64,000 nucleotides of DNA from Candidatus Bathyarchaeota archaeon. Its GTDB lineage: Archaea; Thermoproteota; Bathyarchaeia; Bathyarchaeales; Bathycorpusculaceae. Positions 30,438 through 33,503 of this stretch are shown here, piece after piece (the stretch's first letter is position 1; every line of letters begins with the position of its first letter). The notes under the pieces are model-generated. The model saw only the letters and a program-made list of their open reading frames with translations, made no database searches and was not told the origin of the DNA. Position numbers and translations under genes: made by a program. The stretch is from assembly GCA_963780185.1 (NCBI GenBank), contig CAWABA010000006.1, forward strand, positions 448,001-512,000, written 5' to 3'.

Positions 30438-30866
30438 GCCGCCGTCAATCCTTACAAAAAGTTTCCGCGGCTACAAACCAAGCTGACGGATAATTCGCAC
30501 TATAATGTTGGCTAGACAAGTCAAGCCAACGCAACCGATCAGCAGAGTACACTACCCGAACAACCTCGATATTGGTTACAACCAGACTATTTATAAGTTC
30601 ATCGGAGAAGCGCCAAAACACGTTTAGCACATTTGGGCAAGCGCTCAAAAGAAACCCCACAGCTCCATCTTCAGCAAAGCCGGCACAAGAAGCCTTATCG
30701 AACGGGGCACAGGGAGAAAACACTCGACATCCAACGCCGCTCCCAAAGTTAAACCGCATCAAACCTACCCCAAACCTCTTGCCGATTACCGTCTATTTGA
30801 AAATCTGTTAAAAAGCTTTCTCAAACTTCCACCCAAATTCCCACCGAAGTTTCAAAGACGATTAGG

Positions 30867-30951
30867 CGCCGAGGATGGGATTCGAACCCATGCGGACTCG
30901 AGAGTCCACGGGCTCTCAAGGCCCGCGCGTTAACCACTCTGCCACCTCGGC
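30867..30951 (-). tRNA. tRNA-Ser(TGA)
   Basis: GCCGAGG acceptor, anticodon loop CTTGAGA, long variable arm, GGTTCGAATCC; no intron. Confidence 0.95.
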
Positions 30952-31924: not shown

Positions 31925-31964
31925 TTCAACCTAATTAAGACGCCCAAAAACCGTCGGTCGGGGG

Positions 31965-33230
31965 TTACTCGCCGTAGGTGCCTCTTCGGATTTTCTCAGC
32001 CAGCAAATGGACGAATTCAATCGGCCACACATCATCACAAACGTCGTCAGTCAATATTTTCCGTTGATGATACATTGGAATCAAATCGTTCTTAAGCAGC
32101 AAAATCAGCAGAAATTCATGGCCATAGGTTCTTTTAAAAAGGGCGTATTTGGTGGCTTGCCTTTTCGTCATTTCAAAATGGGGTTCAAGAATTATTTTTC
32201 TTCCCTGAAGCTTACGCTCCAAAATGAAGTCAGGGGTGTACACTTCATTGTTAGGCAACGGGAAGCTGATGGTTTCGTAGCCGTAGGGAATATGCATTTT
32301 CAGAAGAGTCAGGGCGGTTTTCTTTTCCCAACCGCTTTTGTAGCGACTCATTTTTGCGTAGTAAGCTTGGGATTGCCCAGTTATTTTTTGCATGCGTTCC
32401 AGAAAATCAAGAGCCGTTTTCAAAGTGGTCCTATCAAGGGGCTTCTGCCGCAGCCATCTGCCCAGCAGGAAAAAGGGGTAATCAACTTTTGCTGGATCCT
32501 GTGGGTAAAGCCGTTTTGCGAAGACAGTTATTTTCTGTCTTGCCACCGCAGCTGTCTGTTCGTCTCTCCACAGGGATGGGGAAGCGGTCTCGATTACTCT
32601 CAGGCTCGCCGCCACGTTGGCGTTTTCCAATGTTAACGGGACGTAGAGGTCTTCGGGTAGGAGATGGTCGTAGATCTGCAGGTCGGGTGCGGGTCTAACC
32701 ATCCAACGCATGTAAATCCACGCCTTGTCAATGTGTGGTCCGCTGAGGGCTTTCACGTTCTTGGCAATGTCCTCAACGAATTCGCCTGGCTTCCTAAACC
32801 TTTGAGCGTATTTCAACAGGTTCCTCTCAGCGTTGATCTTCACAAACAAGTTGACGGAAGCTAAGATTTCGCCTGCTGCTTTCTTGTTCGGACCCAAATC
32901 AGAGTAAAAATCTGATTTGACGATTTCTTCGTCGAAAATATGCCCCTTCTTAATCTCGAACAACGTGTTCCCGAATGCTTCATGCAGGTAGGAGAGCAGC
33001 ATGCGGGCGTTTTCAGGGTAACCCACCACGGTATCGTCAAGTATAGAGGCGATCAGCAGGAAGTAGTGGGCGATGATTTTTCTATCTTCATAGTTTTGCG
33101 AGTACGGGTTGAAAAGCAGCCGGGGGCTCATGCGTCGGTCCCATTGGACGTCGGCGGCGTCAGAGTTCTTGTTTATGAACTCCACCAGTAGCGAAAGCAC
33201 TTCATCGGTTGCCATATCCATACCCAGCAA
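31965..33230 (-). CDS. DUF2400-like domain fused to a T7 endonuclease I-like PD-(D/E)xK domain
   Basis: KAWIYMRWMVR..PEDLYVPL and PQDPAKVDYPFFLLG (DUF2400 pattern); YKSGWE...YE...YTPDF...ILEPH (T7 endo I pattern). Confidence 0.7.
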   Translation of the reverse strand: MLGMDMATDEVLSLLVEFINKNSDAADVQWDRRMSPRLLFNPYSQNYEDRKIIAHYFLLIASILDDTVVGYPENARMLLSYLHEAFGNTLFEIKKGHIFDEEIVKSDFYSDLGPNKKAAGEILASVNLFVKINAERNLLKYAQRFRKPGEFVEDIAKNVKALSGPHIDKAWIYMRWMVRPAPDLQIYDHLLPEDLYVPLTLENANVAASLRVIETASPSLWRDEQTAAVARQKITVFAKRLYPQDPAKVDYPFFLLGRWLRQKPLDRTTLKTALDFLERMQKITGQSQAYYAKMSRYKSGWEKKTALTLLKMHIPYGYETISFPLPNNEVYTPDFILERKLQGRKIILEPHFEMTKRQATKYALFKRTYGHEFLLILLLKNDLIPMYHQRKILTDDVCDDVWPIEFVHLLAEKIRRGTYGE

Positions 33231-33425: not shown

Positions 33426-33503
33426 GGGCCGGTCGTCTAGCCTGGTTAGGACATCTGCTTGACGTGCAGAAGGTCGCCGGTCCGAATCCGGTCCGGCCCA
33501 CCA
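33426..33503 (+). tRNA. tRNA-Val(GAC)
   Basis: GGGCCGG acceptor, TCTGC-TTGACGT-GCAGA anticodon arm, encoded CCA. Confidence 0.95.

Follow-up and report, generated by a model that had tools for sequence, protein, structure and literature searches.

Fusion of a DUF2400 domain, a putative glycosylase-dead base reader, to a T7 endonuclease I-like nuclease domain in Bathyarchaeia

Analysis of a 64,000-nucleotide stretch of a Candidatus Bathyarchaeota archaeon genome (contig CAWABA010000006.1, positions 448,001 to 512,000; hereafter the window) revealed a reverse-strand gene that encodes an N-terminal DUF2400 domain with the fold of the HhH-GPD (HhH, helix-hairpin-helix) glycosylases, fused to a C-terminal domain homologous to T7 endonuclease I. 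The DUF2400 domain carried a threonine (Thr200) at the position of an aspartate in stand-alone DUF2400 proteins, and this replacement and the fusion go together in a way that fits a single origin. The gene is under strong purifying selection. The reading we favour, with modest confidence, is that a glycosylase-dead base reader directs a histidine-variant T7 endonuclease I-like nuclease to non-canonical bases. A preliminary description of the gene, made from the sequence alone, had proposed a non-catalytic reader of lesions or modified bases coupled to a nuclease for repair or modification-dependent restriction, and the same interpretation would best account for the results below.

Domain composition of the fusion protein

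Coordinates are positions in the window and residue numbers are counted from the TTG start (Table 1). The reading frame was open, and every motif quoted in the preliminary description was located in the translation: RWMVR (residues 175–179), PEDLYVPL (192–199) followed by T200, and DPAKVDYPF (245–253) in the N-terminal part, and YKSGWE (297–302), YE (318–319), YTPDF (331–335) and LEPH (348–351) in the C-terminal part. The 120 closest relatives listed in the database were 82–96% identical, mostly 416 aa long, and had the N-terminus MATDE. Because most homologues are of this length and begin in this way, the true start is probably the ATG at 33215 (MATDE, 416 aa) or the ATG at 33221, rather than the TTG at 33230. 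A TTTTAA box was read from the sequence ~30–40 bases upstream of the start. The AlphaFold2 model, built from 126 relatives, had a predicted local distance difference test (pLDDT) score of 93.7 and a predicted template modelling (pTM) score of 0.88, and showed an all-helical domain that ends near residue 285, a linker of lower confidence and an alpha/beta domain spanning residues 296–421. A Foldseek search of the whole model against the PDB returned weak rows only, none at E ≤ 0.001; the structural matches given here for each domain come from exhaustive VIA-align.

The N-terminal domain was matched by Pfam DUF2400 (PF09674) between residues 167 and 257 (profile positions 140–223 of 225) with an E-value of 1.2e-8 and a score of 35.8 bits (cut-off 25), as the preliminary assignment had anticipated, and PF09674 was annotated on all 120 of the close homologues listed. 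The score for TIGR02757, a hypothetical equivalog of NCBIfam, was 37.2 bits, far under its cut-off of 139.2, and Pfam HhH-GPD (PF00730) gave no match to the protein at E ≤ 1. VIA-align of residues ~8–280 placed glycosylases and Qng1 in ranks 1–20, with the caveat that helical folds easily give high Z: the matches included Qng1/DUF2419 (7u07, Z 15.8), Thermotoga Ogg (3n0u, Z 14.8), 8a5g (Z 13.0), endonuclease III (EndoIII; Z 12.6–13.0, with 2abk at 12.6), AGOG (1xqp, Z 11.8) and MutY (Z 11.7). The domain therefore has the same fold as EndoIII, Ogg and AGOG (Z 11–15). R175 and W176 were retained in 80/80 loci and R179 in 79/80, where the 80 loci are those kept of 115 stretches that encode a relative in species genomes; all three residues were invariant in 16 fused representatives.

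Canonical DUF2400/TIGR02757 proteins have the same domain and share the RWMVRxxPD motif, the P-L-x position and DPxKVDYPFF. They differ from the fusion protein in being stand-alone and ~250–310 aa long, with VP[LV]D and an ARKK hairpin; their consensus reads ...saRKKxWMYxRWMVRPxPDL...VP[LV]DxNV.... A four-cysteine C-terminal loop (C..C..C..C), like the Fe-S loop of EndoIII, was present in some of them (P0178, P0199, P0205, P0222, P0227, P0237 and P0242). In two further representatives (P0153 and P0157) an Asp-bearing DUF2400 domain lay behind a DUF6884 domain, a family that the Pfam paper ties to YaaA and to a DNA-lesion interactor; this fusion hints that DUF2400 originally had a part in the handling of damaged DNA. 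No relevant paper on DUF2400, TIGR02757 or PF09674 was found in the literature.

For the C-terminal domain, Pfam Phage_endo_I (PF05367) matched residues 291–339 at an E-value of 0.01 (15.9 bits, under the cut-off of 29.1), and 14 of the 126 relatives matched this family at E ≤ 0.01 (best 6.9e-6). A profile of 29 C-domain sequences searched against the PDB identified T7 endonuclease I (1m0d, E 1.3e-9; 2pfj, 4.5e-9; 3cae, 6.6e-8), and the alignment placed E302, D334, E349 and H351 on E20, D55, E65 and K67 of that enzyme. VIA-align of residues ~297–421 matched the nucleases Bax1 (Z 9.1, 108 aa), VC1899 (8.9), Can2 (8.4), PspGI (8.0), and Vsr and Cfr10I (both 7.3); these Z values are middling, yet agree with the T7 endonuclease I profile match and point to a restriction-endonuclease-like core. 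Independently, the ESM Atlas clusters nearest to residues 291–421 were viral Phage_endo_I proteins. These matches bear out the T7 endonuclease I-like assignment and the PD-(D/E)xK fold that it implied. The domain shares with T7 endonuclease I (PF05367; 1m0d, 2pfj) a homologous core and the Glu, Asp and Glu positions; it differs in that Lys67 is replaced by His351, a putative reader domain of 285 aa is attached and the protein is cellular and archaeal rather than phage-borne.

The change of ExK to ExH reported earlier was real (E349/H351 in 79/80 loci), and E319 was kept in 80/80. The E, PD, E and H positions hardly varied among the 29 C-domain sequences, whose identity to the query ranged from 21 to 82% and which included stand-alone proteins of ~125–185 aa, also with ExH. 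Because ExH is near-invariant across the subfamily, small stand-alone proteins included, it is the norm of this nuclease subfamily and not decay. The exceptions were ExK in P0264, ExQ in P0246 and DxH in P0260.

Several other proteins with this nuclease domain were observed. P0264, with the canonical ExK and NUMOD3 repeats, looks like a homing endonuclease. P0239, P0255, P0262, P0263 and P0246 are of 240–310 aa and combine the ExH nuclease (ExQ in P0246) with a C-terminal CxxC...CxxC region. Outside the window, a UvrD-like helicase of 998 aa (G000:C6:682025-685021; L130:2026-5022), which ends in a topoisomerase-type zinc ribbon, had a ~165-aa insertion in its helicase N domain that weakly matched the Endo-I-like nuclease profile (E 1.4e-4), and comparable weak matches were found in ~790–920-aa frames of five more genomes. 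Single-protein scans of viral contigs with P0176 and P0001, which reach close relatives only, found no relatives.

The aspartate position in the fused clade

The DUF2400 family profile was aligned by hhalign with 25 EndoIII sequences from genomes of the same order (Prob 87.3, E 3.8e-6, 180 columns). The HhH hairpin and the helix of the catalytic Asp coincided in this alignment, with 'vPLD.nv' of DUF2400 on 'VDTHV' of EndoIII and 'saRKK' on 'GRKTA' ('RKK' on 'RKT'). The lysine and aspartate at the aligned EndoIII columns are the catalytic residues of that enzyme. The aspartate was replaced by Thr200 in the fusion protein and position 200 was T in 80/80 loci, which agreed with the change of PLD to PLT described previously. 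The lysine column corresponded to Asp168 of the window protein, with Lys169 adjacent, and was occupied by Asp, Glu or Asn across the loci.

Among near-complete N domains, 16/16 fused representatives had Thr (14) or Ser (2) at this position. The 30 other representatives carried Asp with the single exception of P0128 (P0200, P0222 and P0227 read Asp in the alignment). P0128, a protein of 330 aa, aligned to query residues 9–290 alone and may be a cut fused form. A tree of the N domains (46 rows, quick search, midpoint root only) grouped the 16 fused proteins and P0128 in one clade (SH-aLRT, the Shimodaira–Hasegawa-like approximate likelihood ratio test, 96) nested among Asp-bearing DUF2400 proteins. 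As the fused forms make up one clade inside Asp-bearing proteins, the loss of Asp and the fusion go together and fit a single origin. Compared with canonical DUF2400, the fused clade has Thr or Ser for Asp, a shorter hairpin, no Cys loop and an added nuclease. Both of the motif changes first described stood; the ExH motif, for its part, is not degenerate.

Distribution, selection and genomic neighbourhood

A search of 1.84 billion cluster representatives gave 166 matches at E ≤ 0.001, and because these are so few the family is small. The expectation that the fusion would be found in other assemblies was borne out by relatives in 115 stretches of species genomes and by diverged metagenomic representatives that also carry it, fused forms of 35–40% identity among them. 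The source names and contig titles of the relatives assigned the gene to Bathyarchaeia. In a sample of the class, 47/301 genomes and 11/109 genera had a match; the gene was in 30/30 sampled genomes of the genus of the window and 4/4 of a sister genus. In a sample of the phylum, 17/401 genomes matched at E ≤ 1e-10, 16 of them in the family of the window and the other, the exception, with the C domain only. Two relatives came from contigs with other titles, L036 (78% identical) from one named Methanocella sp. and L047 (87%) from one named Limnocylindrales bacterium; as the range is otherwise confined to Bathyarchaeia, mis-binning of these contigs is the probable cause.

The genome that contains the window (2.75 Mb, 93% complete) encoded one DUF2400 gene and, besides it, an Hjc resolvase and four ordinary HhH-GPD genes. 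The fusion protein was considered as the junction resolvase of this genome and rejected in that role because Hjc is present. Some genomes had a second copy at 34–38% identity.

Comparison with the closest relative gave a ratio of nonsynonymous to synonymous substitution rates (dN/dS) of 0.018/0.668 (~0.03). Over 63 loci dN had a median of 0.11, lower than in the two genes downstream (0.174 and 0.198); dS was saturated for most pairs. The gene is under strong purifying selection and is more constrained than its neighbours.

The gene is part of a conserved block made up, in order, of tRNA-Val, the fusion, the HExxH gene, the JAB gene in convergent orientation and tRNA-Ser. Both tRNAs and the HExxH gene, noted at the outset, are real neighbours, but the arrangement is conserved in a subclade only and they are not coupled partners: both tRNAs flanked the gene in 24/37 loci examined, and orthologues at 57–68% identity (L050, L054, L057, L073 and L080) did not have these flanking tRNAs. 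The HExxH protein has the motif HEFYHH...H..GTE..AD and matched no Pfam family. Its AlphaFold2 model (pLDDT 77.9) gave weak zincin matches (VIA-align Z ≤ 6.2, Foldseek E ≥ 0.026), with weak structural likeness to minigluzincins, SPRTN, Wss1, abylysin, CapP and PprI, and on this model it is probably a minimal zincin metallopeptidase widespread in archaea. The gene was downstream of the fusion in 69/80 loci. It was considered as a dedicated partner and rejected because its range greatly exceeds that of the fusion (149/301 genomes of the class and 50/109 genera, compared with 47/301 and 11/109); in 12/12 genomes holding both the HExxH gene and a fusion copy of 57–66% identity, the two were on different contigs. 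A T5 run 15 bases after the fusion stop and a TTAATTA box ~30 bases before the HExxH start (window 31932–31950) may represent, respectively, a terminator of archaeal type and a promoter belonging to the HExxH gene, which suggests that the two genes are transcribed apart.

The JAB gene is convergent with the HExxH gene and their 3′ ends overlap by 4 bases. It was present in 67/80 loci, with the HExxH–JAB pair together in 67/80, and the two may be a real functional pair. Further neighbours in the window were GT87-like and GT2 glycosyltransferases, a pirin and a thioredoxin, and no methyltransferase or defence gene was found within ~4 kb of the fusion gene. PADLOC, with a library of 2023 that predates the description of END nucleases, gave no match for the fusion or for its diverged forms P0126, P0134 and P0138.

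At loci 63–68% identical to that of the window, an Lhr helicase gene was upstream in 3/6 (L050, L054 and L057); a P-type ATPase gene, in two, and metabolic genes were also seen. The second copy in genome G300 (L089, 34% identical; L089:1543-8357) lay 34 bases after a 1450-aa PDDEXK_1 and SF1 helicase gene and preceded a weak HhH-GPD-like gene; these may form a three-gene DNA-processing module.

Table 1. Features of the fusion gene and its neighbours in the window
Feature	Residues	Position	Strand	Remarks
Whole open reading frame	421 aa from TTG	31965..33230	(-)	Stop at 31965-31967; frame open
N-terminal DUF2400 domain	8-285	32376..33209	(-)	All-helical, HhH-GPD glycosylase fold
RWMVR signature of DUF2400	175-179	32694..32708	(-)	
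Thr200, codon ACA	200	32631..32633	(-)	Column of EndoIII catalytic Asp and of VPLD Asp of stand-alone DUF2400
DPAKVD motif	245-250	32481..32498	(-)	Common to canonical DUF2400
C-terminal T7 endonuclease I-like PD-(D/E)xK domain	296-421	31968..32345	(-)	
Glu302	302	32325..32327	(-)	On T7 endonuclease I Glu20; kept in 80/80 loci
Asp334 of YTPDF	334	32229..32231	(-)	On T7 endonuclease I Asp55; kept in 80/80 loci
Glu349-Pro350-His351 (ExH)	349-351	32178..32186	(-)	On T7 endonuclease I Glu65-Thr-Lys67; 79/80 loci, remaining locus cut off
Small HExxH protein	~120 aa	31538..31903	(-)	Downstream of fusion
JAB/MPN protein	144 aa	31107..31541	(+)	Pfam Prok-JAB, E 3.3e-9
tRNA-Val(GAC)		33426..33503	(+)	Upstream boundary of block
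tRNA-Ser(UGA)		30865..30951	(-)	Downstream boundary of block

Possible roles of the fusion protein

Under the favoured reading, the DUF2400 domain with Thr200 in place of the catalytic Asp would still bind DNA and flip a base that is damaged or modified into its pocket but leave it unexcised, and the nuclease domain, with a putative metal-binding triad of E302, D334 and E349 and with His351 at the Lys67 site, would cut the backbone near the flipped base. The flipping of the base, the loss of the glycosylase function, cutting by the nuclease and a non-canonical base as substrate are inferred. NucS/EndoMS and Vsr are PD-(D/E)xK enzymes that recognise an abnormal base and then incise the strand. 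The fusion protein would follow the same read-then-incise logic, and Vsr was among its structural matches (Z 7.3); in NucS/EndoMS and Vsr, recognition falls to the nuclease itself or to other domains rather than to a glycosylase-derived reader.

A number of observations weigh against this interpretation. The hhalign probability of 87%, on which the residue register depends, is not decisive, and in a comparison of the DUF2400 profile with PDB sequences no HhH glycosylase was significant, EndoIII alone appearing at E 2.1. Qng1, which matched the N domain best by structure, has a nucleotide and not DNA as its substrate. Lack of the Asp does not always leave an HhH enzyme inactive: Escherichia coli TAG has no such residue and still removes 3-methyladenine. 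The nuclease domain has His where T7 endonuclease I has Lys. The presence of the gene in only 11/109 genera makes it accessory at depth, as defence genes are, and diverged copies (34–38% identity) were near BrxL, PIN and Peptidase_C39 genes (L087) or beside an AbiEii-like gene (L093).

For this orthologue group we lean towards a genome-maintenance role, in which incision would be directed by lesions, over anti-virus restriction, because the gene is genus-wide, fixed in place, highly constrained and among housekeeping genes. A more specific form of such a role, a real but lesser possibility, is a housekeeping repair enzyme of a previously undescribed kind, in which the former glycosylase would only flip a damaged base, perhaps oxidised or alkylated, and the built-in His-site nuclease would incise, a pathway within one protein bypassing the abasic-site intermediate of base excision repair.

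The design itself has a precedent. The preliminary description knew of no account of this fusion; the design principle is described in the 2025 report on END nucleases. In END nucleases a single polypeptide carries an EndoIII/Ogg-like sensor that has been inactivated and a PLD, NucS-like PD-DExK or McrB module; these proteins come from bacteria, where they lie in defence islands, and they restrict phages whose DNA is hypermodified. One tested member, END-Mag, has a PD-DExK nuclease (Yee et al., bioRxiv 10.1101/2025.03.31.646159). DUF2400, a T7 endonuclease I-like nuclease and archaea do not appear among the END nucleases described there (bioRxiv 10.1101/2025.03.31.646159). For the fusion protein the likeness, a glycosylase-like sensor without its catalytic residues fused to a nuclease, is drawn from sequence only. 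The fusion protein differs from the END nucleases so described in its DUF2400 sensor, its ExH nuclease and its archaeal host, and in that its gene is genus-wide, at a position fixed across the genus, among housekeeping genes and not in a defence island.

The fusion protein could accordingly be pictured as the archaeal counterpart of END nucleases, a type IV-like enzyme of modification-dependent restriction whose dead sensor would read hypermodified viral bases and whose nuclease would destroy the DNA, a role to which we give a rather low probability. It would suit a design that fits the experimentally shown END nucleases, and also the patchiness across the class (47/301 genomes, 11/109 genera), the second copies of 34–38% identity in some genomes and the defence-type genes near L087 and L093. 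Against it stand the occurrence in 30/30 genomes of the genus, the fixed locus with its housekeeping neighbours, a dN/dS of ~0.03 and a constraint above that of the neighbours, together with the PADLOC result (none, from a 2023 library that predates END) and the lack of methyltransferase or defence genes within ~4 kb in the window. T7 endonuclease I, the closest nuclease relative by homology, is a branched-DNA resolvase, and this would suit a structure-specific nuclease for junctions, flaps or mismatches in which DUF2400 served as a general HhH DNA- or protein-binding module with no base reading; the PDDEXK_1 and SF1 helicase gene before the L089 paralogue and the Lhr helicase upstream in 3/6 diverged loci are in keeping with it. 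Such a role is unlikely, given that the genome already encodes an Hjc resolvase and that the change of Asp to Thr or Ser is tightly coupled to the fusion and accompanied by invariant pocket-side motifs (RWMxR, PD, DPxKxD), which suggests that the pocket is still in use.

If instead the N domain were still catalytic, as a glycosylase or lyase through other residues or in a TAG-like manner on labile lesions, the protein would be a bifunctional glycosylase-endonuclease. HhH enzymes without the Asp exist, TAG among them, and a Lys or Arg at position 169, beside the EndoIII Lys column, was found in 79/80 loci. That column itself, however, holds Asp, Glu or Asn, and the Asp is invariant in aligned stand-alone DUF2400 and lost in the fused clade only, which fits a change of job rather than kept chemistry and makes retained catalysis quite improbable. 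A role with RNA or nucleotides, such as Qng1-like salvage of a modified nucleoside together with an RNase, perhaps linked to the flanking tRNA genes, seems very improbable. The best match of the N domain was Qng1/DUF2419, the queuosine-5′-monophosphate hydrolase (7u07, Z 15.8, 234 residues aligned), and the gene lies between two tRNA genes. But Qng1 was within about one Z unit of the DNA glycosylase Ogg (14.8), that is, tied with DNA glycosylases; the identity was 11%, and Qng1 lacks a fused nuclease and takes a free nucleotide as substrate. Furthermore, some canonical DUF2400 proteins have the EndoIII-like four-Cys loop or carry DUF6884, a family linked to DNA-lesion binding, and the orthologues of 57–68% identity are not beside these tRNAs.

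The combination of a dead-glycosylase sensor with a nuclease has so far been shown only for the bacterial anti-phage END nucleases. If the reading of the fusion protein as a glycosylase-dead base reader joined to a nuclease holds, this design would be extended to archaea, to another sensor family (DUF2400) and to another type of nuclease, and DUF2400/TIGR02757 would gain its first link to a function. The split between Asp in stand-alone and Thr in fused proteins is a natural experiment on the job of the DUF2400 domain, and the enzyme may serve as a reagent for the detection of non-canonical bases. Should the role be in repair, it would constitute a new incision-repair route in abundant, uncultured archaea of sediment and soil.

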